Shown: positions 15,496 to 53,437 of the stretch, in pieces
Position numbering within the stretch: the stretch's first letter is position 1
Layout of the letters: the number at the start of each line of letters is the position of its first letter
Source: Heptranchias perlo
Lineage: Eukaryota
DNA: 64,000 bases
Direction of reading: 5' to 3'
Assembly: GCF_035084215.1 (NCBI RefSeq)
Contig: NC_090326.1
Coordinates: 137,020,001-137,084,000, forward strand
Translations under genes and position numbers: made by a program
Notes under the pieces: model-generated
What the model was told of the DNA's origin: nothing
Databases searched by the model: none
What the model saw: the letters and a program-made list of their open reading frames with translations, nothing else

Positions 15496-16119
15496 AAAAA
15501 TTGGCACAAGCATTAGTGGCACTCAGTGTTGGCAGGGACTGGTATTCTTCTCAGTCCTGGATGCTGATCCTGGACCTGCTGGTAATGTAAAATTCAGTAC
15601 TGTGTGTATTTCTGTTTATTCAATCTGTAACAAACTTTTACATTGTTGATGATCCTTTCTTTTCCCATCAATTTTCACCCCTCCCCTTTTGAAGTTGTTG
15701 GTTTCTTAGCGGACAGAGGTTCATTGGTGTCAATCACCATCTGGTATGTGCCCATTACTCACGAATGAACCTTGATGGTGAGTACTGACAAGCCATTCCA
15801 TTGGGCAAGCAGTATCACAGCCAAGCCTGTTCCTGTTTGTACACAATGGCCACAAATATGCACTTCTAGCATTGCTACATAGCATCAGTGACCAAGAACC
15901 ATTCTAGTCTCTGCTATCACAACAAGAGCTACTCAGTTACTCATATACCACTTAGATCAGCTGAGTGCCATATGGCTTTGACAGGCAACATGGTGGATCT
16001 CAAACAGGCTGCAAGTGAGAGGGAAACAACAGATATCTCCCAACAGGACAAAGAGAATGAGCAATTATATGCAAGGAGTCTTACAACACCAGGTTATAGT
16101 CCAACAGCTTTATTTGAAA

Positions 16120-16156
16120 TCACAAGCTTTCGGAGCTTTCCTCCTTCGTCAGGTGA
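16120..16156 (-). ncRNA. Minimal hammerhead ribozyme motif in the left PLE terminus
   Basis: Minus strand reads TCAC-CTGACGA-A-GGAG(GAAAG)CTCC-GAAA-GC-TT-GTGA. Confidence 0.8.
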
Positions 16157-16449
16157 GTGTAGGAGGATTCCATAAAGGTACAGCATATATAGTCAGAGAA
16201 CAATGCCTGGTGATTACAGATAATCTTTCCAACTGCCCGTTATCTCACCTCGGCAGAGATATAATCAAAGTAATCAAAGGAATGGAATGGCGTTCAGACA
16301 GAGAAACATTACATACAAGACTACTGAATACACAATCGGTCAGAACACAAAGACAGAGAGAGAGATAGAGAGAGACCCAAAAGACAGAGAAAGAGAGAGA
16401 ATGACCAGTTGTATTAAAAACAGTTAACTTTTTATCGCTGGTGGGGTTA

Positions 16450-17999
16450 CATGTAGCGTGACATGAACCCAAGATCCCGGTTGAGGCCATCCTCATGGGT
16501 GCGGAACTTGGCTATCAATTTCTGCTCGACGATTTTGCGTTGTCGTGTGTCTCGAAGGCCGCCTTGGAGAACGCTTACCCGAAGATCGGAGGCTGAATGT
16601 CCTTTGACTGCTGAAGTGTTCCCCGACTGGGAGGGAACCCTCCTGTCTGGCGATTGTTGCGCGGTGTCCGTTCATCCGTTGTCGCAGTGTCTGCATGGTC
16701 TTGCCGATGTACCATGCTCTGGGGCATCCTTTCCTGCAACGTATGAGGTAGACAACGTTGGCCGAATCACAGGAGTATGAACCATGCACCTGGTGGGTGG
16801 TGTCCTCTCGTGTGATGGTGGTATCTGTGTCGATGATCTGGCATGTCTTGCAGAGGTTGCCGTGGCAGGGTTGTGTGGTGTCGTGGACGCTGTTCTCCTG
16901 AAAGCTAGGTAATTTGCTGCGATCGATGGTCTGTTTGAGGTTGGGTGGCTGTTTGAAGGCGAGTAGTGGAGACGTGGGGATGGCCTTAGCGAGGTGTTCG
17001 TCGTCATCGATGACATGTTGAAGGCTGCGAAGAACATGGCGTAGTTTCTCCGCTCTGGGGAAGTACTGGACGATGAAGGGTACTCTGTTGGTTGTGTCCC
17101 GTGTTTGTCTTCTGAGGAGGTCTATGCGATTTTTCGCTGTGGCCCGTCGGAACTGTCGATCGACGAGTCGAGCGTCATATCCCGTTCTTACGAGGGTGTC
17201 TTTCAGCGTCTGTAGGTGTCCGTCGCGTTCCTCCTCGTCTGAGCAGATCCTGTGTATTCGCAGGGCCTGTCAATAGGGGATGGCCTCTTTGACGTGGTTA
17301 GGGTGGAAGCTGGAAAAGTGGAGCATCGTGAGGTTGTCCGTGGGCTTGCGGTAAAGTGAGGTGCTGAGGTGCCTGTCTTTGATGGAGATTCGTGTGTCCA
17401 AGAATGAAACCGATTCTGAGGAGTAGTCCATGGTGAGTTTGATGGTGGGATGGAACTTGTTGATGTTAACGTGTAGTCTCTTCAGTGATTCTTCGCCGTG
17501 GGTCCATAGGAAGAAAATGTCGTCGATGTATCTGGTGTATAACGTTGGTTGGAGGTCCTGTGCAGTGAAGAAGTCGTGCTCGAACTTGTGCATGAAAATG
17601 GTGGCGTAGTGGGGTGCGAATTTGGTCCCCATGGCTGTTCCGTGTGTTTGGGTAAAGAACTGGTTATCGAAGGTGAAGACATTGTGATCCAGGATGAAGC
17701 GGATGAGTTGTAGGATGGCGTCTGGAGATTGGCTGTTGTTGGTGTTGAGTACTGAGACTGTTGCAGCGATGCTGTCATCGTGGGGGATACTGGTGTCAAG
17801 TGCCGAGACGTCCATCGTGGTGAGAAGTGTTCCTGGTTCAACTGGTCCGTGGGTGCTGAGTTTTTGTAGGAAGTCTGTAGTGTCGCGACAGAAGCTGGGG
17901 GTTCCCTATACGATGGGTTTCAGGATGCCCTCCACGTATCCAGACAGGTTCTCACACAGAGTTCCGTTGCCTGATACGATAGGACGTCCGGGTGTGTTG
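16450..17999 (-). pseudogene. PLE reverse transcriptase plus GIY-YIG endonuclease, 5'-truncated and disrupted
   Basis: RT motifs TMDVSALDTSIPH, GTAMGTKFAP, YTRYIDDIFF, FLDTRI. GIY-YIG region SCDSANVVYLIRCRKGCPRAWYIGKT. Stop at about 17270 and a frameshift in the C-terminus. Confidence 0.92.
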
Positions 18000-19388
18000 G
18001 ACACACGGACCAGTTGAACCAGGAACACTTCTCACCACGATGGACGTCTCAGCACTCGACACCAGTATCCCCCATGATGACGGCATCGCTGTAACAGCCT
18101 CAGTACTCAACACCAACAACAGCCAACCTCCAGACGCCATCCTACAACTCATCCGCTTCATCCTGGATCACAATGTCTTCACCTTCGATAACCAGTTCTT
18201 TACCCAAACACACGGAACAGCCATGGGGACCAAATTTGCACCCCAATACGCCAACATTTTCATGCACAAGTTTGAGCACGACTTCTTCACTGCACAGGAC
18301 CTCCAACCAACGCTATACACCAGATACATCGACGACATTTTCTTCCTATGGACCCACGGCGAAGAATCACTGAAGAGACTACACGATAACATCAACAAGT
18401 TCCATCCCACCATCAAACTCACCATGGACTACTCCTCAGAATCGGTTTCATTCTTGGATACATGAATCTCCATCAAAGACGGACACCTCAGCACCTCACT
18501 CTACCGCAAGCCCACGGACAACCTCACGATGCTCCACTTTTCCAGCTTCCACCCTAACCACGTCAAAGAGGCCATCCCCTATGGACAAGCCCTGCGAATA
18601 CACAGGATCTGCTCAGACGAGGAGGAACACGATGGACACCTACAGACGCTGAAAGACGCCCTCGTAAGAACGGGATATGACGCTCGACTCGTCGATCGAC
18701 AGTTCCGACGGGCCACAGCGAAAAATCGCATAGACCTCCTCAGAAGACAAACACGGGACACAACCAACAGAGTACCCTTCGTCGTCCAGTACTTCCCCGG
18801 AGCGGAGAAACTAGGCCATGTTCTTCGCAGCCTTCAACATGTCATCGATGACGACGAACACCTCACTAAGGCCATCCCCACGCCTCCACTACTCGCCTTC
18901 AAACAGCCACCCAACCTCAAACAGACCATCGTTCGCAGCAAATTACCCAGCTTTCAGGATAACAGCGACCACGAACCACACAACCCTGCCACGGCAACCT
19001 CTGCAAGACATGCCAGATCATCGACACAGACACCACCATCACACGAGAGGACACCACCCACCAGGTACATGGTTCATACTCCTGCGACTCGGCCAACGTT
19101 GTCTACTTCATACGTTGCAGGAAAGGACCAGGCAAGACCATGCAGACACTGCGACAATGGATGAACGGACACCGCTCAACAATCGCCAGACAGGAGGGTT
19201 CCCTCCCAGTTGGGGAACACTTCAGCAGTCAAGGACATTCAGCCTCCGATCTTCGGGTAAGCGTTCTCCAAGGCGGCCTTCGAGACACACGACAACGCAA
19301 AATCGTCGAGCAGAAATTGATAGCCAATTTCCGCACCCATGAGGAGGGCCTCAACCGGGATCTTGGGTTCATGTCACGCTACATGTAA
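18000..19388 (+). pseudogene. PLE reverse transcriptase plus GIY-YIG endonuclease, second arm, disrupted
   Basis: ORFs 17992-18465, 18529-19164 and 19140-19388. CGA>TGA stop at 18463 and a deletion removing the WYIG motif near 19128. Confidence 0.92.
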
Positions 19389-19665
19389 CCCCACCAACGA
19401 AAAAAGGTTATCTGTTTTTAATACAACAGGTCATTCTTTCTCTTTCTCTGCCTTTCGGGGGTCTCTCTCTCTGTCTTTGTGTTCTGACAGATTGTGTATT
19501 CAGTAGTCTTGTATGTAATGTTTCTCTGTCTGAACACCATTCCTTTGATTGCTTTGATTATATCTCTGCCGAGGTGAGATAACGGGCAGTTGGAAAGATT
19601 ATCTGTAATCACCAGGTATTGTTCTCTGACTATATATGCTGTACCTTTATGGAATCCTCCTACAC

Positions 19666-19702
19666 TCACCTGACGAAGGAGGAAAACTCCGAAAGCTTGT
19701 GA
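19666..19702 (+). ncRNA. Minimal hammerhead ribozyme motif in the right PLE terminus
   Basis: TCAC-CTGACGA-A-GGAG(GAAAA)CTCC-GAAA-GC-TT-GTGA, followed by AATAAA. Confidence 0.8.
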
Positions 19703-19972
19703 TTTCAAATAAAGCTGTTGGACTATGACCTGGTGTTGTAAGACTCCTTACATTTGTCCTCCCCAGTCCATCACCGGCATCTCCACATCACAGCAATTAT
19801 ATGGGAGAGTACCTTATATTGACAATGCTTCCCCACAATTATATGGGGGAGCACTTTATATTGAAAATACTGTCCCTCCAGTTATGTTTGTCTTTTCAAA
19901 AAAGTATATATTTCAAACACAAACTCAGTCTTTTAAGTAAACTGTTCACTATTGTGGCAAAAGTAGGTACGG

Positions 19973-20047
19973 TAGCAGAGTGGTTATGTTAACGGGCTAG
20001 TAATCCAGAGGCCTGGACTAATAATCCCGAGTCATGAGTTCAAATCC
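19973..20047 (+). promoter_or_regulatory. Internal Pol III promoter (A and B boxes) at the LINE 5' end
   Basis: TAGCAGAGTGG at 19973-19983 and GTTCAAATCC at 20038-20047. Confidence 0.7.
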
Positions 20048-21488
20048 CGCGACGGCAGCTGGCGAATTTAAATTCAATTAATTCAATAAAATCTGGAATT
20101 AAAATACTAGTATCACTAATGGTGGCCATGAAACTATCGGATTGTCGTAAAAACCCATCTGGTTCACTAATGTCCTTTAGGGAAGGAAACCTGCCGTCCT
20201 TACCAGGTCTGGCCGAAATGTGACTCCAGACCCACAGCATTGTGCTTGATTCTTAATTGTCCTCTGAAATGGCCTAGCAAGCCACTCAGTTGTACAATCT
20301 CGCTACAAAAAGTCACAATAAGAATAAAACCGGATGGACCACCCGGCATCGGACCACTCGGCACCGGACACGACAAAGGCAAACCAAGCCCAGTCGACCC
20401 TGCAAAGTCCTCCTCACTAACATCTGGGGACTTGTGCCAAAATTGGGACAGCTGTCCCACAGACTAGTCAAGCAACAGCCTGACATAGCCATACTCACAG
20501 AATCATACCTTTCAGCCAATGTCCCAGACTCTTCCATCACCATCCCTGAGGTGCAGGTACAGTGATATACAGTCAGGAGGGAGTGGCCCTGGGAGTCCTC
20601 AACATTGACTCTGGACCCCATAAAATCTCATGGCATCAGGTCAAACATGGGCAAAGAAACCTCCTGCTGATTACCACCTACCGCCCTCCCTCGGCTGATG
20701 AATCAGTCCTCCTCCATGTTGAACACCACTTGGAGGAAGCACTGAGGGTGGCAAGGGCACAGAATGTACTCTGGGTGGGGGACTTCAATGTCCACCACCA
20801 AGAGTGGCTCAGTAGCACCGCTACTGCCTGAGCTGGCCGAGTCCTAAAGGACACAGCTGCTAGACTGGGCCTGAGCGGGTGGTGAGTGAACCAACATGAG
20901 GGAAAAACTTACTTGATCTCGTCCTCACCGATCTACCTGTCACAAATGCATCTGTCCATGACAGTATTGGTAGGAGTGACCACCGCACAGTCCTCGTGGA
21001 GATATAGTCCCGTCTTCGCACTGAGGACACCATCCAACGTGTTGTGTGGCACTACCACCGTGCTAAATGGGATAGATTCAGAACAGATCTAGCAGCTCAA
21101 AACTGGGCATCCATGAGGTGCTGTGGGCCATCAGCAGCAGCAGAATTGTATTCCAGCACAATCTGTAACCTCACGGCCCGGCATATTCCTCACTCTACCA
21201 TTACCAACAAGCCAGGGGATCAACCCTGGTTCAAGGAGGAGTGTAAAAGAGCATGCCAGGAGCAGCACCAGGCGTACCGAAAAATGAGGTGCCAACCTGG
21301 TGAAGCTACAACTCAGGACTACATGCATGCTAAACAGCGGAAGCAACATGCTATAGACAGAGCTAAGCGATTCTACAACCAACGGATCAGAGCAAAGCTC
21401 TGCAGTCCTGCCACATCCGGTCGTGAATGGTGGTGGACAATTAATCAACTAACGGGAGGAGAAGGCTCTGCAAACATCCCCATCCTCA

Positions 21489-23174
21489 ATGATGGCGGAG
21501 TCCAGCACGAGTGCAAAAGACAAGGCTAAAGCGTTTGCAAACATCTTCAGCCAGAAGTGCCGAGTGGATGATACATCTTGGCCTCCTCCCGACATCCCCA
21601 CCATCACAGAAGCCAGTCTTCAGCCAATTCGATTCACACCACTTGATATCAGGAAACGGCTGAGTGCACTGGATACAGCAAAAGCTATGGGCCCCGACAA
21701 CATCCCGGCTGTAATGCTGAAGACTTGTGCTCCAGAACTAGCTGCGCCTCTAGCCAAGCTGTTCCAGTACAGCTACAACACTGGCATCTACCCGACAATG
21801 TGGAAAATTGCCCAGGTATGTCCTGTTCACAAAAAGCAGGACAAATCCAATCCGGCCAATTACCGCCCCATCAGTCTACTCTCTATCATCAGCAAAGTGA
21901 TGGAAGGTGTCGTCGACAGTGCTATCAAGCGGCGCTTACTCACCAATAACCTGCTCACTGATGCTCAGTTTGGGTTCCGCCAGGACCACTCGGCTCCAGA
22001 CCTCATTACAGCCTTGGTCCAAACATGGACAAAAGAGCTGAATTCCAGAGGTGAGGTGAGAGTGACTGCCCTTGACATCAAGGCATTTGGCAGAGTGTGG
22101 CACCAAGGAGCCCTAGTAAAATTGAAGTCAATGGGAATCAGGGGGAAAACTCTCCAGTGGCTGGAGTCATACCTAGCACAAAGGAAGATGGTAGTGGTTG
22201 TTGGAGGCCAATCATCTCAGCCCCAGGTCATTGCTGCAGGAGTTCCTCAAGGCAGTGTCCTTGGCCCAACCATCTTCAGCTGCTTCATCAATGACCTTCC
22301 CTCCATCATAAGGTCAGAAATGGGGATGTTCGCAGATGATTGCACAGTGTTCAGTTCCATTCGCAACCCCTCAGACAATGAAGCAGTCCAAGCCCGCATG
22401 CAGCAAGACTTGGACAACATCCAGGCTTGGGCTCATAAGTGGCAAGTAACATTCGCACCAGACAAGTGCCAGGCAATGACCATCTCCAACAAGAGAGAGT
22501 CGAACCACTTCCCCTTGACATTCAACGGCATTACCATCGCCGAATCCTCCACCATCAACATCCTGGGGGTCACCATTGACCAGAAACTTAATTGGACCAG
22601 CCATATAAATACTATGGCCACAAGAGCAGGTCAGAGGCTGGGTATTCTGCGGCGAGTGACTCACCTCCCGACTCCCCAAAGCCTTTCCACCATCTACAAG
22701 GCACAAGTCAGGAGTGTGATGGAATGCTCTCCACTTGCCTGGATGAGTGCAGCTCCAACAACATTCAAGAAGCTCGACACAATCCAGGACAAACCAGCCC
22801 GCTTGATTGGCACCCCATCCACCACCCTAAACATTCACTACTCCCTTCACCACCGGCGCACAGTGGCTGCAGTGTGTACCATCCACAGGATGCACAGCGG
22901 CAACTCGCCAAGGCTTCTTCGACAGCACCTCCCAAATCCGCAACCTCTACCACCTAGAAGGACAAGAGCAGCAGGTACATGGGAACAACACCACCTGCAC
23001 GTTCCCCTCCAAGTCACACACCATCCCGACTTGGAAATATATCGCCATTCCTTCATCGTCGCTGGGTCAAAATCCTGGAACTCCCTTCCTAACAGTACTG
23101 TGGGAGAACCTTCACCACACGAACTGCAGCGGTTCAAGAAGGCGGCTCATCACCACCTTCTCAAGGGCAATTAG
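21489..23174 (+). CDS. Non-LTR retrotransposon reverse transcriptase ORF (561 aa; upstream EN part frameshifted)
   Basis: KAMGPDNIP, NYRPISLLS, QFGFR, ALDIKAF, GVPQGSVLGP, FADD, LGVTID. Confidence 0.9.
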   Translation: MMAESSTSAKDKAKAFANIFSQKCRVDDTSWPPPDIPTITEASLQPIRFTPLDIRKRLSALDTAKAMGPDNIPAVMLKTCAPELAAPLAKLFQYSYNTGIYPTMWKIAQVCPVHKKQDKSNPANYRPISLLSIISKVMEGVVDSAIKRRLLTNNLLTDAQFGFRQDHSAPDLITALVQTWTKELNSRGEVRVTALDIKAFGRVWHQGALVKLKSMGIRGKTLQWLESYLAQRKMVVVVGGQSSQPQVIAAGVPQGSVLGPTIFSCFINDLPSIIRSEMGMFADDCTVFSSIRNPSDNEAVQARMQQDLDNIQAWAHKWQVTFAPDKCQAMTISNKRESNHFPLTFNGITIAESSTINILGVTIDQKLNWTSHINTMATRAGQRLGILRRVTHLPTPQSLSTIYKAQVRSVMECSPLAWMSAAPTTFKKLDTIQDKPARLIGTPSTTLNIHYSLHHRRTVAAVCTIHRMHSGNSPRLLRQHLPNPQPLPPRRTRAAGTWEQHHLHVPLQVTHHPDLEIYRHSFIVAGSKSWNSLPNSTVGEPSPHELQRFKKAAHHHLLKGN

Positions 23175-24501
23175 GGATGGGCAATAAATGCTGGCCTCGC
23201 CAGCGACGCCCACATCCCATGAACGAATAAAAAAAATCTACCTCTTAAATTCCCACAAAATTATCCTTACAATGAGAATATTTCACGGTGAAGTACATTA
23301 GTTTGTAAAAGTAAAATGGTTATATATAGTATCTCAGAGAAGATGACCTCTAATCTGAGCCCAATATTAGAAATCCAGTCCTTTCTCGATAACAAGCCTT
23401 GAAGCCTTTTTTCTCAATGTCAGGTCTTAGTAAGGCTTCTAGGAGTAAGTTGGCACGTATAACGATTCCTCAATTGAACTGTGCCTACCAATGCTTTTAA
23501 CCTCTCCCAAAAACAACAAAAGGCAAAAACCATTGTCTTTCTCTCTCTAGGTAAGATGACAACTTCTTGAATAAACTATACTGTTGAAACTATCTCTAAA
23601 ATGTTCAGCAAAATTTTGGCTTGAATATATTTAAACTATATTGACATTGGAGCTGCCAAGTTTGTGGTAATAAACACCTATATACAGGATAAATGGGGCA
23701 GGTAAAGTTATTTATGAACATGTTTGCACTGAGTAAAATCACCAGCTGTGATGCACATATAGCTATATATTATGCAGCATGATTTTATGGTGTCATTTTT
23801 CTTTTTTAAAGTTAAACAAAACAAAGCACAATATTTCAGAAATCAGTAATGAGATTATATAACGTGATACCGGTTTGATGCTTTCAGCGTGGCGTTGTGG
23901 ATGTTCAGTATACTAGCTACTAACTCATAAGCAGATAATGGGAAGAGTGATGAATTGTGCAAATTAGTAATTGTGACTGTGTTTAAAAAAAATTAAGATT
24001 CTGTTCACAAAAGTGTATAAAATTATATTGTTACACCAATTACACAACTGCTTATTATGTTTGCAGAAATGGCATTTAACAGATGAAACATGCTGTTCTT
24101 TACAGGGCCTGAATTTGCTGGAACGGGATGTTTGTTGAGAACGCCATTAATCGGAGATTTTAGGTCTCTATTTAATTGCACTATATTTGCGCAACAAATT
24201 GCTGGAAGAGTCTCAGGGTTTCCATTCAGAACACACAATTCTACTATAAGTATTAGAAAACCAAAAGTTGTATGTCTCTTTAATTGTTTTTTAAAGAATG
24301 GCTTGAGATGCAAAGGAGTTGACCGTCAGTGGGGGAATGTTAGGTGCTTTCAAGATGTGATCTTTTGTTTGCTAAAGACAGAATCCAAAAGTGAGTCATA
24401 AAGGTCTGTTGCTTTGGGAGACACCCCTTTCAGAGTGGCCAGTTGATGAATTTGACAGCTTCAGTCTCTGGAGAAAATATTCCAATGCCTGAAAAGAAGC
24501 C

Positions 24502-24784
24502 ATGATGTGGAGATGCCGGTGATGGACTGGGGTTGACAATTGTAAACAATTTTACAACACCAAGTTATAGTCCAGCAATTTTATTTTAAATTCACAAGCT
24601 TTCGGAGGCTACCTCCTTCCTCAGGTGAATGATGTGGGGGAATGTTAGGTGCTTTCAAGATGTGATCTTTCAAGATGTGATCTCCACATCGTTCACCTGA
24701 GGAAGGAGGTAGCCTCCGAAAGCTTGTGAATTTAAAATAAAATTGCTGGACTATAACTTGGTGTTGTAAAATTGTTTACAATTG
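24502..24784. mobile_element. PLE terminal hairpin with two hammerhead motifs and captured host DNA in the loop
   Basis: Tail 24503-24536, arms 24537-24637 and 24684-24784, TSD TGAAAAGAAGCC at 24490-24501 and 24783-24794. Hammerhead with CTGAGGA core at 24692-24730. Confidence 0.9.
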
Positions 24785-25339: not shown

Positions 25340-25504
25340 GATGTGGAGATGCCGGTGATGGACTGGGGTGGACAAATGTAAGGAATCTTACAACACCAGG
25401 TTATAGTCCAACAAATTTATTTTAAAATCACAAGCTTTCGGAGATTATCCCCTTCGTCAGGTCACCTGACGAAGAGGATAATCTCCGAAAGCTTGTGATT
25501 TTAA
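25340..25504. mobile_element. PLE terminus with a short fold-back of the hammerhead region
   Basis: Tail GATGTGGAGATGCCGGTGATGGACTGGGG. Inverted arms 25422-25462 and 25464-25504 around CTGACGA..GAAAGCTTGTGA. No clear TSD. Confidence 0.85.
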
Positions 25505-26010: not shown

Positions 26011-27652
26011 CTTTGTGGGTCTTGAGTCTCCTCTGAGTAAACAGCCACCTCATTCACCAAGCACCCTATTAAATGAGCACTGGGAGGCCTCCAGGCTATT
26101 TGATCCAAAAGCACACCGCCTAAAAACTAGGCTATCAAACTTTGAGATATGCATTTTGATGCCTGTTTTTTGCCTTGCCAAACTGACCTTTGTGCATTAT
26201 GGCGACTTCATATTTTTTTCTGCTGCTTGCTACTGGTTTTCTGCAATTCAACACTCGTTAGGTGAACATCTCCAACAATTCATCCTCAACCTTGATGCGT
26301 GTGCCTGTTTTTAAGATTTGTTTTGAATGTCACTAATTCTTCTTGGTTACTGTTGCAACATTTGCTTACGCTATCTTCTGATGTTTCATAGCTTCCACAG
26401 GAATGAAGTCTGCTTCATTTGCTAGAAGGTTTCTTAACTATAGAAATATCCAAATGTTGTTACCCCACGCTTAGAGAGTGCTGGCTACACTAAACAGTAT
26501 TCATCCAGCTTCAAGTCAGGTGGAAGATAAGACGATACAGAGATTGCTTTAGGGATGAGTCTTCCAAAGATGCATTGGTTGAGTGACATTCAGTGATAAC
26601 CCCTGTGTTTGTGGAAAACATGTTTAAGTATCTGGTGCCCAAACTATCTCAAATCAACCTCAATGCAGGGCTAATTAACCTCAGGTCCTGGATTGACTGA
26701 AACTGATAGCAAGACTACGACAAAAATATCTTGGTCTTGTAGAAGTGTTACCAGTCTCATAAGTGCAGGCTTCAGTCAAAGCGGTTTTCTGTGAATTAGC
26801 TTTGATTTTAAACTTGTTTCCAGTCGGCCCTAATAATTATCAGAACAGTTCTGGTTAGCACATTCCTTATGAGGTGCTACACTGTAGAAGACCACAGGGA
26901 ATTTGTTGTGGGACCAATTTTCATTTATCTAAATAATTTTCTTGCCTGTAATGTGGGCAGCACACACATAAAGCACAGCCACAAAAACTTCTCCCACAGA
27001 ATTAGGAGTTCAGTGCCAATGCCATAGGTCTTGTGTGCGAGGCATGACGCAGCTTATCAGGATGCACATTATCTTCTAGTCTCTTCAGAATTTTAAAAAC
27101 ATTCCCAGATTATATTAAATAATGAATAAAAAAGGAATGAAAAAGTTTTTAAGAAGCACTGTGCCGAGTTTGTCCCCTTATCCAACTTGCCAGGGAACAA
27201 CTTCACCTCTATTGATACATGGTGCTACCCCAATGTGCTTCTAAAAAACCCTCAACGTGTGAATGTATAAATACCAAGTTATCAGCAAGGTACCATGCCC
27301 TAGTGATGTATACATACTGCATGACTCAATAAAATATTGATTTAAAGAAGAAAAAAAATCAAAAAAGCACCAGAACTCCAAGAATATAAATTTTCACAAA
27401 AATTGTAATATGGGTCAACTCCCATCTGACTGGAATTATAGGGGAACCACTGCCTCTCTACGTCTCAAGGAATTGAAGAGATAGACTAAGGAGGAGTGAG
27501 TGGATTAAAGGTGTCCAGTTGGAGAACCTAAAATAGTGCATAGATGAGGAACCCCATCCCCTTGGATGTTTTGGGTCTAATTCTTTGAAAAGTTTCTGAA
27601 TACCGCTCTGTTCTGTTCAGCACCAGGTGTTCCTCACCAGTCAGAAGTCACT

Positions 27653-29689
27653 GGGCTCCATTTTAGCACCCGCTATGGGTGCGTTCCTGGCGGGGTGGCT
27701 CCGAAAATCGGGGAATCCTGGAGTGGGTCGGGAGCCCGGTTCCAACCCGCCACTTCCGGGTTCCCCACAGACGCGCCGACGTGCGCGCGCAGCCCCCGCA
27801 TGTGGGACTCCCGCAGGCAATTAAAGCCGGCAGGGTGCCACTTAACAATATTTATCTTGGTATTTCAGGTCATTAACAGACCTGATTAAGGGAATATGTC
27901 AGGAGGGGTGGGATTTTAGAAACAACTGGGACTGTTTCCCATACTGGGGGAAACACTCCCAGTTGAAATGGACGTGTTGCAGCTATCAGCCTGTGGCAGC
28001 TGCAAAGGTCCATTTGACAGGTGGAGGGGTTGGGCAGGGGGGGGGGGGGGAGTGGCCTCATTGCAGGAGGCCACTCTGTCACTTGGGACAAAGTTTGGCC
28101 TCCACCACCCTCCTCCTGACAATCAAATTCACCAACTTGCACACTTACCCCGGGGTCCAGAGACATGTACCTACCTTGCGGACCCCCTCAGATGTACATC
28201 TTCCGGATGGGGGCCGCCATAACTGCAGTCATGACCTTCTCGGAGGGCGAACAGCATCACCAGCCTCGCCGGCCACGCCGTCCACCTCTGACACGTGGAG
28301 CTCCACAACACAGTGCTGTGACACATTCACCTGCACAGCAGGAGGGAGGGCAACCACAGAGAGAGATGCGTCGCAGGGGGCACTACCCTCGCCACAGGGT
28401 CCACAGACCGAGGCTCAGCTTCCTGGACCTCTCTGAGCAGCAGTGCACACGGAGGCTCAGAGTCACTCGACATGTAATCGTGGACATCTGCAGCCTCCTT
28501 CATGCCGAGCTGCTCCCGGCTGGCCCGAGCACCATCTTCTTACCTGTTGCTGTCAAAAGTCACCACTGCCCTCAACAACTTCTCCTCCGCATCCTTCCAG
28601 GGTGCCACCGGGGTCATCGCCGACGTCTCTCAGTTGTCTGCACAAAAGAGCCCTGCAAATACACCTACACCCACTCTGCAGTGACACAATGGGTGGCATC
28701 AGGTGTGGGTCTTCATTGTGATCCTCAGGAAAGGGCATTATTGCACAAATCAGACAAGATTCGCAAAGACATGGCAGTAGCGGTGCCAATATAATGTGAT
28801 GTGAGTTGGTCAGAAATCAATAGAAGTAAAAACCATGACAAACCCTCAAACACCCTTGTGCATCCCCTTCATGCTCATGACACGTTTGCCTTACGCTGCC
28901 TACTGCACATATGTGATGCATGCCCTGTGGCTGCAGCACAGGTAGTGGCAGGTTGAGTGCGGCTGACCGTGAAAGAGATGCATGAGAGGGTGAGTATGAG
29001 ATGGAGCCATGAGATTGTATGAGGATTGGGTTGAGTGGTAGTGGCAGGATGAGTACTGGCGAGGTGAGTATGTGCAGGTAAGATGAGGATGAGGTTTGAG
29101 TGGGTGTGAGGGGTGATGTGACAGAGTAGTGTTGGCAGTGCAGAAGGAGATGTGGGGTGGGGGCGGTGATGTGGCAGACGGAGTGTAAGGGAATGAGTAA
29201 GTGTACTCCCTTTGGCTGACCTACTTAGGTCATTGCAGCGCCTCCTGCACTGTATGCAGGTGGGCGATATGTTGGTGGTGCAGGTGACCTCCTCTGCCAC
29301 CTCGAGCCAGGCCTTCCTGGTGGCAGAGGCAGGCCGCTTCCTCCCGACGGCCGGGGGGGAAGATCTCTGTCCTCCCCCTCCTCCTCACCCCATCTAATGA
29401 TACCTGGAGTGAGGCATCATTAAACTGGGAGCAGCCTTCCCCCTGGGCTGCTCCATGCTATATTTTTTCCTATTTGTTGCAGCATGTGTCAGTGGAGGAC
29501 TGCCCCTTTAAATAGAGCTCCTCCAGCTGACAGACCTTACTGCGCATGCGCAGTCCGCCCGATGCGCAGCTCAGCAGTGGGGAACCCGGAAGACCAGGTA
29601 AGTGGATCCAAATTAGGCTGCGATCGCGCGCGAGGCAGACTGATTTCGCCCCCCCGCTGCGAACCCACAGCCCTGGCAATATCGAGCCC
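27653..29689. mobile_element. Non-autonomous Harbinger deletion derivative (about 2.0 kb)
   Basis: Termini GGGCTCCATTTT and AATATCGAGCCC, flanks act/att. Transposase N-terminus on + (RPRLSFLDLSEQQCTRRLR..KVTTALNNFSSASFQG). Myb fragment on - (KAWLEVAEEV..QCRRRCNDL). Confidence 0.88.
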
Positions 29690-43984: not shown

Positions 43985-44425
43985 ATAAGAACATAAGAAA
44001 TAGGAGCAGGAGTAGGCCATACGACCCCTCGAGCCTACTCCGCCATTCAATAAGATCATGGCTGATCTTCGACCTCAACTCCACTTTCCCGCCGAATCCC
44101 CATGTCCTTTGATTCCCTTAGAGTCCAAAAATCTATCTATCTCAGCCTTGAATATATTCAACCACTGAGCAGCCACAGCCCTCTGGGGTAGAGAATTCCA
44201 AAGATTCACAATCCTATGAGTGAAGAAATTGCTCCACATCTCAGTCCTAATTGGCTGACCCCTTATCCAGAGACCATGCCCCCTAGTTCTAGACTCTCCA
44301 CCCAGGCGAAACAGCCTCTCAGCATCTACCCTGTCAAGCCCTCTCAGAATCTTATATGTTGAATGAGATCACCTCTCATTCTTTTGAACTCGAGAGTTTA
44401 GGCCCATTCTACTCAATTCTACTCT
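43985..44425 (-). mobile_element. CR1 LINE 3' fragment
   Basis: taagaacataagaaataggagcaggagtaggcc tail, same family as 5727 and 62446. Confidence 0.85.
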
Positions 44426-45689
44426 CTGGCGCTTGCAGAGTGCTTTTGGCACTTGTGCTCAGAGATCAGCTGGAAAAAAGGACACTAGATGCATTGCCCA
44501 CCATACCCCTTCTACTGCACCTTGAAGTGGTGAGTCCTTCACTGCTAACACTTAAGGGACATGGGAGACTTCACCATCATCAGGCTTTTTTCTTTGCCTT
44601 TCATCCACTTCCATTTCCGACAGCTAAGACACAAATAACGTGTGTAGAAATCATAATGCCTCACCTCAGCTGCTGCAAAAGCGACAAAAATCCTTCCCTT
44701 AGACCCTCAAAATCTTATTAATTCATATCAACCAAACAATAATTTAACTTTGAAGTTGTAACCCTTGCCTTATCTACAGCTATGATACAAAGGAAGTCTG
44801 ATCCCGATCCTCACTTCCATCTGTCCCGCTGAGTGAGAAAGTCAAATGGAAATGGCAGTGCATTCATATTACAAAATGGGCTGCTATGGCTTATAAGCCA
44901 GCCTCTGCAGAGCGTGGGATGTTTGAATCTCCAGGTAAACATGGACAAATAGATACTGATCATGAAAAGCACTGACAGTTGGCATGTATAGTAGTATTTC
45001 ATTTTAAGGGTCATGGCCCTTCATCTAGTTTTCTCAATAGAAAATTATCTTAAAATATATGGCATTCACTGTTTACAAAATACATTTTTCTTCCCGCTAA
45101 AAAAAATCTTAAATATGGTTTTAAGCAGAGTAGAAATCATCAATTTTACAATATATCTTTTTGCTTCCGTTCTTAAATGGAAACATCAGGACACAATCAG
45201 CCTCTAGCTACAGGCTTTTTCAAAGAGCCTCATAAACTAACAGTTCAAATGCAGTATTTGAAAGCAATTTAAGAAATTCCATTCACATGAAGCAGGTGTT
45301 TATTTACACACATCTGGTTCTTCATGTGTCTGTCCTGTACTACTTCCCCTGCACAGCAGGAGCCTGGTTGTGCTGCACTTGAATTGGTGGGCAGGTAATT
45401 GGTGGTAAGCACGAGTCTCAAAATGGTGCAAAATTCAAACAGGAACAAGAATCAGAGGGAAGGGAACACAGACATGCGATGTTTGAATCCTTGCTGAGCT
45501 TCATCAACAAAAGTGGACAAGTGGACAATGGGTCTGAAAGAGTCAATGTCTACATAGACATGTATGAAACATTACTGCTTACTAAGCTGTCTGTTCGATT
45601 CCTGTAATGTACTTACTATAAGTCTTACATTCTCTAGCAATAAATTTCTGCACTATAGTAAGCTGTACATGCATTTTAAGGTCAATAGT

Positions 45690-46065
45690 GTTTGGCTTCA
45701 TAGAAGTCATTAAGTCCAAAGCATGAAGAGAGATGTGAAGTAGGATATTTTTGGAGAAAAAAATTATGAAAGGAGTTAGACTCTTAAGAGTGGAAAAAGA
45801 GATCTAGGTGCATAGGTCTTAAAAGATGGGAGTTCAGGTTAGAAAAGGCCACAAACAGGGTAAACAAAATTCTAGTTTTTATACATAAGGGCACTGGATA
45901 TAAAAGCAAGGAAGCGATCATCAATTTGAACACTACATTAGTTAGACCAGAATGGGGAGTAATGTGTGCAGTTCACATTACAGAAAGGATATTTGAGCTA
46001 TGGAAAGGATACAGCGAAGATTTACTAGAATGATATCAGGTATAAGAGATTATAATTGAAAAAAA
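45690..46065 (+). mobile_element. Old CR1 RT C-terminal remnant
   Basis: Decayed ..CAGCGAAGATTTACTAGAATGATA.. (QRRFTRMI) motif. Confidence 0.55.
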
Positions 46066-46092
46066 TCTCAGGAACAGAGAGTGTTAAGGGAG

Positions 46093-47222
46093 TACCCAGG
46101 TATTATTGGTTGGGGTGAGGAGGAGGGGGAGGACAGAGATCTTCCCCTCGGCGGGCGGGAGGAAGCGGCCTCGTCTGGTCTGTGCAATAATGCCCTTTCC
46201 TGAGGATCACAATGAAGACCCACAACTGATGCCACCCATTGTGTCACTGCAGAGTGGGTGTAGGTGTATTTGCAGGGCTCTTTTGTGCAGACAACTGAGA
46301 GACATCGGCAATGTCCCCGGTGGCACCCTGGAAGGATGCGGAGGAGAAGTTGTTGAGGGCAGTGGTGACTTTGACAGCGACAGGTAAGAAGATGGTGCTC
46401 GGGCCAGCCAGGAGCAGCTCGGCATGAAGGAGGCTGCAGAAGTCCACAACTACATGTCGAGTGACTCTGAGCCTCCGTGTGCACTGCTGCTCAGAGGTCC
46501 AGGAAGCTGGGCCTCAGTGTGTAGACCCTGTGGCGAGGGTAGTGCCTTCTGCGACGCATCTCTCTCTGCAGTTGCCCTCCCTCCTGCTGTGCAGGTGGAT
46601 GTGTCACAGCACTGTGTTGTGGGGCTCCACGTATCAGAGGTGGACGGCGTGGCCGGTGATGCTGTTCGTCCTCCGAGGAGGTCATGACTGCAGCTACGGC
46701 GGCCCCCATCCAGAAGATGTACATTTGAGGGGGTCCGCAAGGTAGATACATGTGTCTGGACACCGAGGAAGTGTGCAAGTTGGTGAATTTTATTGTTAGG
46801 AGGAGGGTGGTGGAGGCCAAACTTCGTCCAAAGTGACAAAGTGGCCTCCTACAATGAGTGAGGGTCTCCCCCCACCCCCCCCCACCTGTCAAATGGACCT
46901 TTGCAGCTGCCACACGTCCATTTGAACTGGGTGTGTTTCCCCCAGTACAGGAAACAGTCTCAGTTCATTTCGAAATCCCACCCCTCCTAAAATGTTATGT
47001 TAATCAGGTCTGTAAATGACCTGAAATACCTTAATGAGTACTTTAATGGCACCCCACCAGCTTTAATTGCTGGCGGGAGTCCCACATGCGGGGGCTGCGC
47101 GCGCTTGTCAGCGCGTCACTGGGGAACCCGGAAGTGGATGGGTTAGGGCCAGGCTCCAATCCCCGATTTTCGCAGCCCCCCCGCCGCGAACGCACCCGCT
47201 CGGGGGTGCGAAAATCGAGCCG
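46093..47222. mobile_element. Truncated non-autonomous Harbinger copy, inverted relative to 27653-29689
   Basis: Reverse complement of about 27655-28750, right end AAAATCGAGCC, with a Myb fragment joined by an internal deletion near 46170. Confidence 0.88.
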
Positions 47223-47402
47223 TATGACTGGAAGGACTGGTTTCCATTAATAACTGAGGTACATTTCACTGATCCTTATAGGTTGATGAATGATTAGCAT
47301 GGTTCTCAATTCTGCATTTCAAAATGGCTAATATTAGTTTATAATTTTTGTACATTTTAGGGAACCTACATTAAAGCTTTCTGGAGAGTTTCATAATTCC
47401 AG

Positions 47403-49120
47403 ATGAATATCTGCCTAAATTTTACAGAACTAAGAGGTGATTGGGCAGAAGTGGACTGGGCACAACTACTTGAGGAGAAATCAGTGGCAAGCCAGTGGGA
47501 GGCACTAAGAAGTGAAATTCTACGGGTACAATGCAGACAAGTCCCCTCAAAGAAAAAGGGTGGCACTGCCAAATTTAGAGCCCCCTGGTTGTCTAGAAGT
47601 ATACGGGGCAAGATAAAGCAAAAAAAGAAAGCTTATGATTGTCACAGAAAACTAAATACTGCAGAAAGCCTAGAGGAGTATAGAAAGCACAGGGATGACG
47701 TAAAAAAGGAAATAAGGAAAGCAAAGAGAGGGCATGAAAAAATATTAGTTAGTAAGATTAAAGAAAACCCAAAGATGTTTTATCAGTACATTAAGAACAA
47801 GAGGATAGCTAAGGAAAAGGTGGGACCGATCAGGGATGATAAGGGTAACTTGTGTGTAGAAGCAGAGGATGTGGTTAGGGTTTTAAATGAATATTTTGTC
47901 TACGTATTCACAAAGGAAAGGGATGATCCGGACGTAGTAGTTAAAGAGGAGAGGTGTGAAATATTGGATAAGGTAAACATAACGAGAGAGGAAGTACCAG
48001 AGGGACTGGAATCCTTGAAAGTTGATAAGTCACCAACTCCTAGGCTATTGAAGGAAGCCAGGGAGGAAATAGCGGATGCTCAGAGGATCATTTTCCAATC
48101 CTCACTAGATACAGGGGAGGTTACCGGAGGACTGGAAGACTGTACCATTGTTTAAAAAGGGTACGAGGGAAAGGCCAAACAATTATAGGCCGGTCAGTCT
48201 TAACTTGGTGGTGGGCAAACTATTAGAATCAATACTGAAAGGATAAACTGTCACATGGAAAGGCATGGTTTAATCAGGAGTAGTCAGCATGGATTTGTTC
48301 AAGGGAAGGTCATGCCTTACAAATCTGATTGAATTCTTTGAGGAAGTGACAAGGAGGATTGATGAGGGTAGTGCAGTGGATGTTGTCTACATGGATTTTA
48401 GTAAGGCATTTGACAAGGTCCCACATGGCAGACTGGTCAGAAAGATAAAAGCCCATGGGATACAGAGAAATGTGGCGAATTGGATCCAAAATTAGCTCAG
48501 TAACAGGAAACAAAGGGTAAAAGTCGATGGGTATCTTTGCGAATGGAAATCCGTTTCCAGTGGTGTGCCACAGGGCTCAGTGTTGGGGCCCTTGCTGCTT
48601 GTGGTATATATTAATGATTTGGACTTGAATGTAGGGGGCATGATTGGCAAATTTGCAGATGACACAAAAATTGGCCTTGTAGTTGATAATGAAGAGGATA
48701 GCTGTAGACTCCAAGAAGATATCAATGGGTTGGTGGAGTGGGCGGAAAAGTAGCAAATGGAGTTCAACCCGGAGAAGTGTGAGGTAATGCACTGAGGGAG
48801 GGCAAACAGTAAAAGGGAATACACAGTAAACCGGAATATTGAGAGGGTAAAGCAAATGAGAGACCTTGGAGTGCATGTGCACAGGTCCCTGAAGGTGGCA
48901 GTACAGGTAGATAAGGTTGTGAAGAAGGCACACGGAATGCTCTCCGTTATTAGCCGAGGTATAGAATACAAAATCAGGGATGTAATGATGGAACTGTATA
49001 AAACGCTGGTAAGGCCACAGCTGGAGTATTGTGCGCAGTTCTGTTCACCACATTACAGGAAGGACGTAATTGCTCCGGAGAGAGTGCAGAGAAGATTTAC
49101 AAGAATGTTGCCAGGGCTTG
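47403..49120 (+). mobile_element. CR1 LINE ORF2 fragment (frameshifted RT)
   Basis: KIKENPKMFYQYI, GRSCLTNLIEFFE, YMDFSKAFDKVPH, PQGSVLGP, KFADDTK, LVRPQLEYC. Confidence 0.92.
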
Positions 49121-49799
49121 GGTGTTCCCGCCAGCTCCGCTTGTGAACTACCCAGTGAAGCAGAAATCCGCTATCGAAAGTAGAATCATTGATGTCCACT
49201 CTCTGCTTTGAGATCCAAATTGAGTCAAACGAATATCAAAAAGGTCACAATTAAATACAGCTGTTGCTCTCAGCAAGATTCAAAAGCATCAGGCTGTGCT
49301 CTCAGAAACCTGTTTCCAGTCATCTACCTCCTTTCAGGTCAAAGCCAAGCTGTGAGAGCCTTGTTTGCAAGACCCGTAATGTGGCATATAATCACAAATA
49401 ATTAGATCTGTCTCCTTCTCATAGCCAAGTTAAGTCTTTCTGTCATCAATATGGACTTGGCAGTTAACACAAATTAAGCAGTAATATTAATCCAGAAGAT
49501 AAATGAAGGGTACTTCTGGTACCCATACAGTCAGTTTTCAGAGTGCAATAAATAAATTAAAGTGGCCACCAGCTGATCGGCTATTAACATTCAAATAAGT
49601 ATTATAAAAATATGGTGTCTTTTATGATTAGAAACATGATTCATTTCATGTTGACACACTGCAGCACTGCAAGCTAAACATACAAAAATATTTTGAATTT
49701 TTTGAGGAGCAATATCCTTAAATACACAATTTTTGTTTATCTCATCAACAACCATAGGAATCAAACAAGGTAAGAGACAGTATCAAGCTAAAAGAAACA

Positions 49800-51675
49800 A
49801 ATGCAAGGAAAAATGGAAAGGCAGCAGGCTGTGAGTGGTAGTAAAAGCAGCAACGGGATACAAAGAAAGTAACAGAGGTGCAAAAAGGGAATATAGAAAA
49901 AAAAACTTGCAAGGGATATCAAAGTTAACAGCGAAAGTTTTTAATAAATATTAAGAGCAAGAGAGTGGTTAAGGGAAATGTGGGCCCATTAAAGACAGGA
50001 GCAGACAAGACTATAATGGACAAAAAAGAAATGGTAAATTGTTAAATGAGTACATAGTATCTGTGAAGAGGACAATAACAGCAGTTCAAGGGAACCTAAA
50101 AATAAGTCAAGGGAAGGAACTTAGTGTACGTAATACAAGTTTAAAAAAATGATAATGGAGAAAATAATGGGACCTGATGGTTTCCACCCTAGGGTTTTAA
50201 AAGCAATAAGTGAGGAAATTAGAGATGCAGAAGTCATAATTTTCCAAAGCTCTCTAGATTCAGAAATTGTGCCTATGGATTAGAAAACTGAAAATGTCAC
50301 TCCATTATTTAAGAAGGGAGGGATGGAGAAACCAGGTAACTACAGACCTATCAGTTTAATATCACTTGTGCGGAAGTTACTACAATGTATCATCAGAGAC
50401 AGAGTGACTGAGTACTCTGTCAAGTATGAGCTGATCAAAGAGAGTCAGCATGGATTTGTGAAGTCATCTTGAATTCAAGTCATCTTGAATTTTTTGAGGA
50501 GGTCTGCCATGTGGATAGGGTAGTGTCTATGGATGTGGTCTATATGGACTTTTTTAAAAATTCGTTCACAGGATGTGGGCGTCGCTGGCGAGGCCAGCAT
50601 TTATTGCCCATCCCTAATTGTCCTCGAGAAGGTGGTGGTGAGCCGCCTTCTTGAACCGCTGCAGTCCGTGTGGTGACTGTTCTCCCACAGTGCTGTTAGG
50701 AAGGGAGTTCCAGGATTTTGACCCAGCGACGATGAAGGAACGGCGATATATTTCCAAGTCGGGATGGTGTGTGACTTGGAAGGGAATGTGCAGGTGGTGT
50801 TGTTCCCATGTGCCTGCTGCTCTTGTCCTTCTAGGTGGTAGAGGTCGCGGGTTTGGGAGGTGCTGTCGAAGAAGCCTTGGCGAGTTGCTGCAGTGCATCC
50901 TGTGGATGGTACACACTGCAGCCACAGTGTGCCGGTGGTGAAGGGAGTGAATGTTTAGGGTGGTGGATGGGGTGCCAATCAAGCGGGCTGCTTTATCTTG
51001 GATGGTGTCGAGCTTCTTGAGTGTTGTTGGAGCTGCACTCATCCAAGCAACTGGAGAGTATTCCATCACACTCCCGACTTGTGCCTTGTAGATGGTGGAA
51101 AGGCTTTGGGGAGTCAGGAGGTGAGTCACTCGCTGCAGAATACCCAGCCTCTGACCTGCTCTCGTAGCCACAGTATTTATGTGGCTGGTCCAGTTAAGTT
51201 TCTGGTCAATGGTGACCCCCAGGATGTTGATGGTGGGGGATTTGGCGATGGTAATGCCGTTGAATGTCAAGGGGAGGTGGTTAGACTCTCTCTTGTTGGA
51301 GATGGTCATTGCCTGGCACTTATCTGGCGCGAATGTTACTTGCCACTTATGAGCCCAAGCCTGGATGTTGTCCAGGTCTTGCAGGCATTGCACAAGAGAT
51401 CAAAAATGATGGGAATTGGAGGTAACTTTGTGACATGGGTTAGTAATTGGTTGGGAGGTAGGAGACAGAGTAGAGATAGAGGAAACATTCTCTAATTGGT
51501 GGGAAGTGAGAAATGGTGTTTCCCAGGAACTATACTGGGGCCTCAGCTTTTCACCATATATGTTAATGGGTGTGAAGAAAATGCAGGTAAATGGAGTTGA
51601 GGTACAGATCAGCCGTGATCTAATAGAACAGAACAGGTTAGAGAGGCTGAATGGCCTATCCCTGTTCCTATGTTA
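49800..51675 (+). mobile_element. Decayed CR1 LINE interrupted by an antisense LINE fragment
   Basis: GPDGFHPRVLK, NYRPISL and DVVYMDF motifs, with a CR1 tail cctgttcctatgtt. Confidence 0.8.
50551..51383 (-). mobile_element. Young 5'-truncated copy of the 19966-23236 LINE family
   Basis: ORF 50614-51393 is nearly identical to the C-terminus of 21489-23174. Confidence 0.92.
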
Positions 51676-53149
51676 AACACATCTTTGCACAACAGAGATA
51701 AAAATCCATCCTAATATTTCAAATTAAATACTGAGTAGGTAAAGAAGAATGATTTTTTTCCCTTGGAGGTGAAAGGGGTAGGAGGCTTTTAGGATGACAC
51801 CTCACTTGTTAGAGGAATGTTAGTCTTAATGAGGATTTGCTTGAACTACTATTTTCATTACTAAGAAAAATAAATGTAGAGTCCATTTTCTGCCACTGGG
51901 TGGCACTAGTATACTGAGGGCTAAGTTTCACTATTTCTTCTGCTTGGCAAAAATATTTGCCTTAGATTGAAATGACATGTAAACCTGAACTTTTGCTTTT
52001 TCTTTTAAACCAGACTAAAGAACAGTTAATAACAGAGAAAATACTTACTTTTTAATAAAGAAAGTCTGCCTCATGGTGTCATGAATAAGGAGAATGTTGG
52101 GACATAAACTCACTTCTTTGATTTCCCACAAAAGGAGTTCCTGATCTCACTATTCTAGTAATGGAAGATGAAATGCAGGATTTTCTCTGCTTTTCCTTCT
52201 TCTGAAAGTCCATCTGCATTATGTACCTTTGCCAGAACAGAAGGTCCCTAGACCTGATCCTAAGCAGTGGCCAACGATGCTCTCTATAACCGACTTCTGG
52301 GAGGTTTGCAAAAATGGTTCGGTTACTGGAAATCCAACTTTTCCTTCCTTCCTGTAGGAAGTGCATACCTATCACTAATTCCTACAGAAGTGCAGTTGAG
52401 AATGGAAATTTAACTGTACTGGGAAATCACAGGTTCTGAATGCTTCCTACACTACACCAGACTAGCACATCTGTTGACGCATCTAATCCAGTGGTATCTG
52501 GTTAATAAAGGCTGCATTCATTTTCAAACTTAGATATTGGTTAAGTATTCTTTGTTTTAAAATTGAAGTTGTTGCAATAAAAATTAAGATCTAACATGGT
52601 ATTGGCTTCTCTAAGAAATCATATTTCAGCTTAACTTGATACAATTGTTACAAATTTTACTTGATTTGTTTGTGCCTAATGTCCAAGGGAGGGTCCAAGT
52701 CAATTCAATTGTATTACACACATCTTGTGGGATTCATTCATACATGTTCGATTGGCACATTTTTTGAAAAATTGTTGTTTAAACAGGCTTGGTCCTAGTC
52801 ATTTTTTGATGGTACTTATGACCCCACCTTGATCAAATCATGAGTCTGTTGGCAACCTTCATAGAGATATATTTCTGTTCACTTTTTTTTAAAAAGAGAG
52901 TATTTATAAACATGTCTTGTTCAAATCAGTTAGACTGACTGTAACCTTCAAAAAGTGATAGGCAAAGATAGTTTCCATAGATGATGAGAAAAGAAAAAGT
53001 ATGTTATTTATATTACTTATATCATAGTATAGCACAGCCCTTGCAAATTATATATTTTTTTCCACTAAAAAAGTGGTTAGCTAAGCATAATAACGGTTGT
53101 CAATATATGATGTTTTATTGCTACTATTTGCTTGCTGTTTCTCAGTTGT

Positions 53150-53437
53150 CAGTCTTGTCTTAGAGGTAGTATTCTCGCATCTGAATCAGCAAGTTGTGGG
53201 TTCACAGACTTAAGCACATAATCTTGGCTGATACTTCAGTGCAGTACTGAGGGAATGCTGCACTACAGGAGGTGCAGTCTTTCAGATGAGAAATTAAATT
53301 GAAGCCCCCTCTGCTCTCTCAGGTGTATCTAAAAGATCCCATGGCACTATAGAAAGAAGAGCAGGGGGGAGTTCTCCAGGTGTCTTAGCCAACATTTATC
53401 CCTCAACAACATTACTAAAAACAAATTACTTGGTCAT
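53150..53437 (+). mobile_element. 5' part of a Deu-domain SINE, continued at 58934-59070
   Basis: Breaks at ..TGGTCAT| and resumes at |TTATCTCATTGCTG, contiguous in the intact copy at 14792-15252. Confidence 0.85.

Follow-up and report, generated by a model that had tools for sequence, protein, structure and literature searches.

A dead head-to-head Penelope-like element insertion in the shark Heptranchias perlo, and sister-copy counts that bear on how such units arise

Introduction

Inverted, 5'-truncated copies with a tail of 30–40 bp at one end only are typical of Penelope-like elements (PLEs) according to PMC8557442, which ascribes the tail to endonuclease resolution and calls the process behind these inverted copies and tails undefined. 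Inserts with inverted pLTRs and target site duplications (TSDs) of 8–10 bp are described in the available sections of PMC3846280, where head-to-head is the most frequent arrangement and is explained by self-priming on an antisense template. For a lizard PLE studied in vitro, both target strands are cut and extended, the tail is delimited by two adjacent start sites of reverse transcription, and a dimer is predicted; the portions of PMC11167929 at hand offer no model for inverted arms. Our search of titles and abstract openings, with the subscription literature mostly outside it, found no paper in which tail state was counted against arm length. Twin priming of L1 elements uses two primers from two target nicks and leaves an inverted join with a short overlap and one TSD; its inverted segment is copied from a stretch of the RNA that lies upstream and does not overlap.

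Our study concerns a head-to-head unit of a shark PLE family. The locus is an ordinary dead insertion, and its value lies in being one of many sister units whose statistics can be read jointly.

Results

Layout of the unit

The window is a 64 000-nt stretch of the H. perlo genome (contig NC_090326.1), and all positions are counted within it. An earlier note, made from the letters alone, had claimed that positions 16072–19791 hold two coding arms set head to head. This was confirmed by a repeat finder, which paired the inverted blocks 16069–17854 and 18001–19753 (one stretch of 974 nt at 97 % and five more), and by a global alignment with 96.5 % identity between the arms (1690 of 1751 aligned columns, 61 substitutions), in which the right arm has five short gaps relative to the left. 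The features are as follows, with residues of the family ORF numbered as in the natural intact copy.

16060..16071, plus strand: left copy of the TSD, AGCAATTATATG, 12 bp
16072..18000, minus strand: left arm, 5'-truncated, with residues 361–890, 3' UTR and terminal repeat
17856..18000, minus strand: unpaired spacer of about 145 nt of RT-coding sequence, left arm only
17992..18006, no strand: inversion junction with a 6-bp stem and a 3-nt loop, GTGTGT-TGG-ACACAC
18001..19791, plus strand: right arm, 5'-truncated, with about residues 410–890 (about 424–890 by tblastn, which gives 361–890 for the left arm), 3' UTR, terminal repeat and tail
19751..19791, plus strand: one-sided tail, 41 nt, right arm only
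19792..19803, plus strand: right copy of the TSD, AGCAATTATATG, 12 bp

The left arm is the longer of the two and its outer end is tail-less. The asymmetric spacer of roughly 145 nt that the earlier note had described was seen in the alignment as 144 extra nt by which the left arm runs further inward, and the single 12-bp duplication that it had placed around the whole unit was also found; the tail of the right arm was absent from its description. Its head-to-head join stood, and its position of about 17999/18000 did not: we place the join at 18000/18001, because sister copies match the window through base 18000. Two of the first bases of the right arm deviate from the sister copies.

Matches to Logan contigs over 17856–20400 were swamped by sister copies, and the join rests on the assembled sequence. 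No contig among the matches listed was shown bridging the join, as would be expected if a chimeric fold-back read had been built into the contig. Such an artefact is nevertheless barely credible, as the arms differ at 61 sites and by several indels, including arm-private lesions, and the unit follows the family's tail and TSD rule, set out below. A DNA contig, possibly from the source sample, also crosses from the left flank into the element for 27 nt, short of the 31-nt bar used for bridging.

Lesions of the two arms

The arms carry the following lesions.

17270..17272, minus strand: premature TGA of the left arm, present in 0 of 87 other arms
16605, minus strand: +1 frameshift in the endonuclease domain of the left arm, present in 0 of 105 other arms
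18463..18465, plus strand: premature TGA (CGA>TGA) of the right arm
18974..18975, plus strand: -1 frameshift in the RT–EN linker of the right arm, from alignment and tblastn
19127..19131, plus strand: site of an 18-nt deletion (near 19128) in the right arm, which takes out the WYI of the YIG motif

Three of these, the left stop near 17270, the right stop at 18463 and the WYIG deletion, had been proposed as independent lesions and were all recovered; the two frameshifts are additions. The intact ORF that marks an active retrotransposon is missing, each arm being 5'-truncated with one stop and one frameshift, and the unit likely has no function. The suggestion that the two arms reconstruct an intact ancestor fails, as residues 1–360 are absent from both. 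An uninterrupted natural copy of 891 aa (L078) exists elsewhere in the genome.

Identity of the family

By its sequence motifs the element is classed as a Neptune/Nematis-type PLE with relatives in other sharks. The 891-aa ORF of L078 matched RVT_1 in Pfam (E 6e-10) and ends in a C-terminal domain of the form VYLIRC..C...WYIG; the family thus shows the trait that characterizes EN+ PLEs, one ORF in which a GIY-YIG-like endonuclease lies C-terminal to the RT. The Pfam GIY-YIG model matched neither this protein nor either arm. Many homologs carry PF01541 (GIY-YIG). Inspection of protein P0001 by eye placed the two Cys of a CCHH endonuclease motif between the GIY- and YIG-like motifs and its His downstream, within MNGH and GEH.

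The linker between RT and endonuclease holds a Zn-finger-like motif, CHGNLCKTC (CX4CxxC), in P0001 and in the frames of both arms. A linker motif of the form CX2-5CxxC marks the Neptune and Nematis clades in the definitions given in the available text of PMC8557442, and its presence therefore points to a Neptune/Nematis-type element rather than Poseidon, a call made by motif definitions rather than by a tree with named references and covering Neptune and Nematis jointly. The Penelope/Poseidon clade was ruled out, as the absence of a linker Zn finger expected there is contradicted here; Naiad/Chlamys was ruled out because an N-terminal endonuclease is expected and the endonuclease-like domain here is C-terminal. 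The nearest labelled proteins come from H. perlo itself (94–95 %), Scyliorhinus torazame (85 %) and Mustelus asterias (80 %), followed after the sharks by turtles at about 45 %.

Both termini were scanned with a pattern for a hammerhead-like core, CTGACGA-stem-GAAAGCTT, and each gave a match.

16120..16156, minus strand: hammerhead-like core, left terminus
19666..19702, plus strand: hammerhead-like core, right terminus

This predicted motif was present in both arms and in 56 of 68 anchor ends, and the 46-nt hammerhead-like fold scored z=-2.1 against shuffles. An Rfam scan of the termini returned nothing at the gathering score, and the terminal 137 and 72 nt folded no better than shuffles (z -1.1 and -0.3). 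Three sister copies (L031, L036 and L040) are tandems of the form pLTR-ORF-pLTR, and in the tandem copies the end of the tail coincides with the ATG start codon of the ORF.

Prevalence of head-to-head units

Two genome searches gave 697 candidates, all matches to one 301-nt segment, and 473 candidates, and the best 40 of each were scored. The resulting sister sample of 77 scored loci outside the window consists of top scorers and is biased toward long, similar copies, with the anchor arm of each locus selected for length. An inverted arm was found at the 5' side in 49 of the 77 and was missing in 28; both ends could be scored in 39 of these 49 loci and could not in the other 10. With its tandem copies and inverted arms, the family has the pLTRs from partial tandems and the direct or inverted terminal repeats that are traits of EN+ PLEs. 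Thirty-five loci were simple units, defined by one strand switch, a TSD and one tail, and in 4 of these 35 the paired arm was longer than that of the window unit, reaching 2.5 kb. The head-to-head layout, already described for PLEs, is the commonest form among the sampled sister copies, and the rarity implied by the earlier note was mistaken.

The window itself holds further units.

8184–8404: shorter complete unit of the same build, TSD 15
24502–24782: shorter complete unit of the same build, TSD 12
60581–60709: shorter complete unit of the same build, TSD 12
25340–25504: shorter unit with no detectable TSD

The spacers of these short stubs are near zero.

Tails, target site duplications and sister arms

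Exactly one tail was present in 38 of the 39 scorable units, two tails in one and none in zero; with its 41 nt, the tail here was counted as the one-end tail of 30–40 bp of EN+ PLEs. TSDs were found in 36 of the 38 one-tail units (two of only 8 bp), compared with 6 of 380 mismatched flank pairs used as a control for the TSD search. Their length was 12–13 bp in 28 of the 36, and 43 TSDs had a composition of 71 % A+T. A free choice of start site by independent primers would be expected to give about half mixed units, against the 38 of 39 observed (binomial p about 7e-11, calculated by hand). In 14 of the 35 simple units the tail belonged to the longer arm and in the other 21 to the shorter (p=0.31 against 50:50), and the arms differed in length by about 180 to 3290 nt, mostly by more than 1 kb. 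In the window unit the spacer belongs to the tail-less arm.

Partner arms are close relatives. Out of 27–67 candidates, the partner ranked first in 19 of 33 loci, where 0.64 would be expected, and third or better in 30 of them, and in a tree of 100 arms partners were sisters in 19 of 23 pairs, compared with 0.6 % of random pairs. The arms of the window unit are sisters in this tree (support 0.81) and the partner ranked 2 of 67 by mismatch rate, the measure used for ranking; bit score placed the unit 19th of 68, because private deletions depress the score. The family contains many subfamily haplotypes, and partner arms share a haplotype; in one young unit (L067) they are identical, with 0 of 524 sites differing. 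An origin of the window unit's arms in distinct subfamilies was considered, as the 5-nt gap near 19537 and a few other differences recur in other copies, and was rejected on the tree and the haplotype table. Arms of distinct subfamilies with separate TSDs, which the earlier note had named as evidence against its reading, were not what was found: the arms are sisters and share one TSD.

Two independent insertions, or an inversion or recombination that came afterwards, could also bring two arms head to head by chance in a family so abundant that one 301-nt segment yields 697 candidates. This is very improbable, given that one TSD lies outside both arms and none between them, that the arms are sisters, and that the same pattern recurs with a TSD in 36 of 38 one-tail units. 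The single unit with two tails (L052) has no TSD, its arms differ in haplotype (the partner ranks 13 of 49), and it looks like two events.

Stems at the junctions were slightly longer than at control places (3.39 against 3.08, p=0.03, 31 joins). Stems of at least 6 bp occurred at 2 of 31 joins, one of them that of the window unit, and at 32 of 1360 control places (p=0.17).

Age, decay and host context

The idea that the arms can date the insertion is reasonable in principle: across 1377 coding columns no private change was common to both arms, and 26 and 21 changes were arm-specific. The comparison with family-wide divergence proposed in the earlier note gave an arm–arm distance of 0.034, equal to that of the nearest sister (0.034) and within the range of 33 units, whose arm–arm mismatch ran from 0.4 to 7.6 %. 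As the window unit stands at 3.4 % against a median of 2.6 %, it is middle-aged to old within the sample. The non-CpG distance between the arms was 37/1489 (2.5 %), or about 1.25 % per arm. With a rate of 7e-10 mutations per site per generation (CI 1.4-14.1e-10), given for another shark in the part of PMC10587355 at hand, this yields a crude age of the order of 10^7 generations, the rate being that of a different species. An 1812-nt contig from another organism matches the left flank up to 16057 and then continues for about 750 nt without the first bases of the element, which hints at an empty site.

Relative to sister copies, the right arm has 35 derived substitutions and the left arm 28; most of them are C>T and G>A, and A>G is not in excess. 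Between the arms, A>G and G>A each number 9 and C>T and T>C each number 12. No host gene was recognised by Pfam above the cut-off in 150 frames (the 149 longest of the 224 non-repeat frames and one flank frame, all in the window); three weak matches fell below it, and the window may still lie within a very long intron. One presumed-RNA run left the unique left flank without cover, and another run gave no cover at 19811–19895, as did a DNA run there.

The earlier note had further proposed that a pre-mRNA would form dsRNA as a substrate for ADAR editing or siRNA production. If the locus were transcribed through, about 1.75 kb could pair at 96.5 % complementarity. That the unit works as a long hairpin within a transcript of the host is nonetheless very doubtful: no host exon was recognised in 150 of the 224 non-repeat frames, the genomic differences are symmetric (although RNA editing is invisible in DNA), the decay of both arms looks neutral, and the same layout is a by-product at many loci. 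The proposal is thus unsupported, though not refuted.

Discussion

The unit is a genuine, dead insertion of known architecture that arose in one event, as the earlier note had proposed, and the single TSD, the one-sided tail and the sister arms support this. The counts from its sister copies bear on the origin of the inverted copies and one-sided tails of PLEs, and they oppose a fold-back of fixed polarity.

The earlier note had left two routes side by side, opposed reverse-transcription products or a fold-back, and the sister-copy counts favour the former over the latter. In a fold-back, one cDNA or antisense template would snap back and copy itself, the asymmetry of the tail arising when the hairpin is resolved. 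The arms of a unit do carry one haplotype, a hairpin of 6 bp with a 3-nt loop sits at the join of the window unit, and the spacers of the window's short stubs are near zero, all as this route would have it. A copy cannot exceed its template, so the tail state of the spacer-bearing arm should be fixed; the counts of 14 and 21 show no fixed state, and fold-back is therefore disfavoured. The longer arm of the window unit is without a tail, spacers are mostly longer than 1 kb, and stems of at least 6 bp are not significantly enriched at the joins. Taken together, we consider a fold-back unlikely. The sister status of the arms is equally compatible with it.

The single tail in 38 of 39 units, the sister status of partner arms and the ratio of 14:21 argue instead that both nicked target strands probably primed reverse transcription on one source transcript. 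The endonuclease would nick the target strands 12 nt apart; one target 3' end would prime where the tail ends, and the other some 41 nt inward of that site; the two cDNAs would stop independently of each other, giving unequal truncation points; and their ends would then be joined and the gaps filled. The template may be a single RNA molecule copied two times, or a pair of RNAs from the same locus in an asymmetric dimer. Most simply, each of the two nicks would use a start site of its own, both on the same source transcript. In vitro, the lizard enzyme PAc starts on both strands at the same sites, with no strand difference in the part of PMC11167929 at hand; those data concern a Poseidon element, and the mechanism here is read from sequences alone. 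The 28 of 77 loci without an inverted arm, the hairpin at the join of the window unit, the slightly longer stems and the bias of the sample weigh against dual priming, as do the published accounts by self-priming (PMC3846280) and by endonuclease resolution of the tail (PMC8557442).

Priming from both nicks could also draw on two RNAs from different active source loci, with the arms later homogenized by gene conversion. The differing haplotypes of the L052 arms would fit this, as would the 1–4 private changes that partner arms share in many other loci, where random pairs mostly share 0. L052, however, has the two tails and missing TSD of two events, the window unit has 0 private shared changes against 47 arm-specific ones in 1377 columns, and no homogenization is evident, the arm–arm distance being that of the nearest sister. 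We regard such a two-source origin as quite improbable.

If priming on one source transcript from both nicks is correct, it can be extended tentatively, and with somewhat less than even confidence, to the proposal that PLEs integrate by obligate asymmetric dual priming, in which the two start sites of a single source RNA are occupied at the same time and the RNA is copied twice. The same 3' region would be copied once from each target nick, and the RNA would not be destroyed. Were this true, it would account together for the one-tail rule, for partners being sisters (19 of 23) and for tail state being unrelated to arm length (14:21), and would displace the published self-priming account. The shark family, whose long units number in the hundreds and which has numerous subfamily markers, would be a ready data set for dual priming, and the sister counts lead to a sharp prediction for the in vitro PLE system that already exists. 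The two arms of such a unit, which probably had the same sequence when inserted, also allow relative dating, as with LTR pairs, and these units should not be mistaken for MITEs, DNA transposons or assembly errors.

Among known systems, L1 twin priming is alike in its two nick primers, its inverted join and its single TSD, and differs in that the shark arms both copy the same 3' region and so form a palindrome. The complex insertions of EN+ PLEs, as described in the available parts of PMC8557442 and PMC3846280, share with the shark unit the head-to-head inverted 5'-truncated copy, the tail at one end, the single TSD and a hammerhead-like motif that in the shark unit is a predicted one. They have TSDs of 8–10 bp and tails of 30–40 bp, compared with 12 bp and 41 nt in the shark unit, and the inverted pLTR of Pen2a_Av (PMC3846280, as far as at hand) measures about 180 bp, whereas the shark inverted copy extends over 1.75–1.9 kb and reaches the RT. 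PAc/Poseidon_Ac of Anolis carolinensis, in the sections of PMC11167929 at hand, is similar in its two fixed end points around the tail, its A+T-rich targets and its tandem pLTR-ORF-pLTR sources. It differs in that Poseidon is without the linker Zn finger that the shark family has, and in that its start sites lie 111–118 nt inside the ORF, whereas the tail of the shark family ends at the ATG.

Short stubs and other repeats in the window

Four short head-to-head stubs in the window belong to the same group of Penelope-like elements (PLEs) as the main unit (16072-19791), and each carries a tail, the short extension at an outer end of a unit, at one end only:

8184-8404, short head-to-head PLE stub, TSD 15 bp
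24502-24782, short head-to-head PLE stub, TSD 12 bp
25340-25504, short head-to-head PLE stub, no TSD found in the flanks
60581-60709, short head-to-head PLE stub, TSD 12 bp

All four look MITE-like, yet are retroelement stubs.

The target site of the main unit sat inside a short duplication that predates the insertion. A tandem pair with a period of 42 nt and 83 % identity (19794-19876) starts in the right TSD copy, and its second unit contains CAATTATATG again.

Several other repeats were observed. A 91-bp inverted repeat (8925-9015 and 9417-9507; 99 % identity, spacing 400 nt) sits within a LINE fragment, and the best flanking repeat around it is only 7 bp. A further LINE (20840-23230), which we take to be CR1/L2-like, holds an RT frame of 573 aa (21453-23174) and has a partial copy at 50560-51382 with 94.5 % identity. 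A 1-2-kb repeat is present in three copies (27646-29616, 46170-47229 and 56180-58028; identity 74-86 %). The reading frame at 1660-2250 has a CMLHNF motif and resembles Harbinger transposases. GC skew was positive throughout 44000-56000, with a maximum of 0.30.

Larger, younger and irregular sister units

Two sister loci elsewhere in the genome hold larger units than the main unit:

L037, 2392-8108, a complete element in inverted orientation together with an arm of 2.5 kb, total length 5.7 kb, TSD 13
L072, oriented 3662-8106, arms of 2.6 and 1.8 kb, TSD 13

L067 is a very young insertion; its arms show no difference across 524 non-CpG sites, and an additional tandem copy lies downstream. L052 was the sole case of two tails among the sister units scored for tails. 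Its arms differ in haplotype, no TSD was found around the unit, and it probably represents two events. Short additional element pieces, each a third fragment and template-switch-like in appearance, were seen at the inversion join of L056, L060, L083, L090 and L098.

Single-arm insertions and the tail end point

A TSD was present in 8 of the 28 sampled loci without an inverted arm (L031, L032, L036, L040, L057, L063, L064 and L102). Four of these are tailed and four tail-less; both end points are in use in these single-arm insertions. At L036 (5017-5150), the tail terminus falls exactly on the ATG of the ORF. This differs from Poseidon_Ac, a PLE of the lizard Anolis carolinensis, for which the published account (PMC11167929) places the start sites 111-118 nt within the ORF, whereas the tail of the window's PLE family stops at the ATG.
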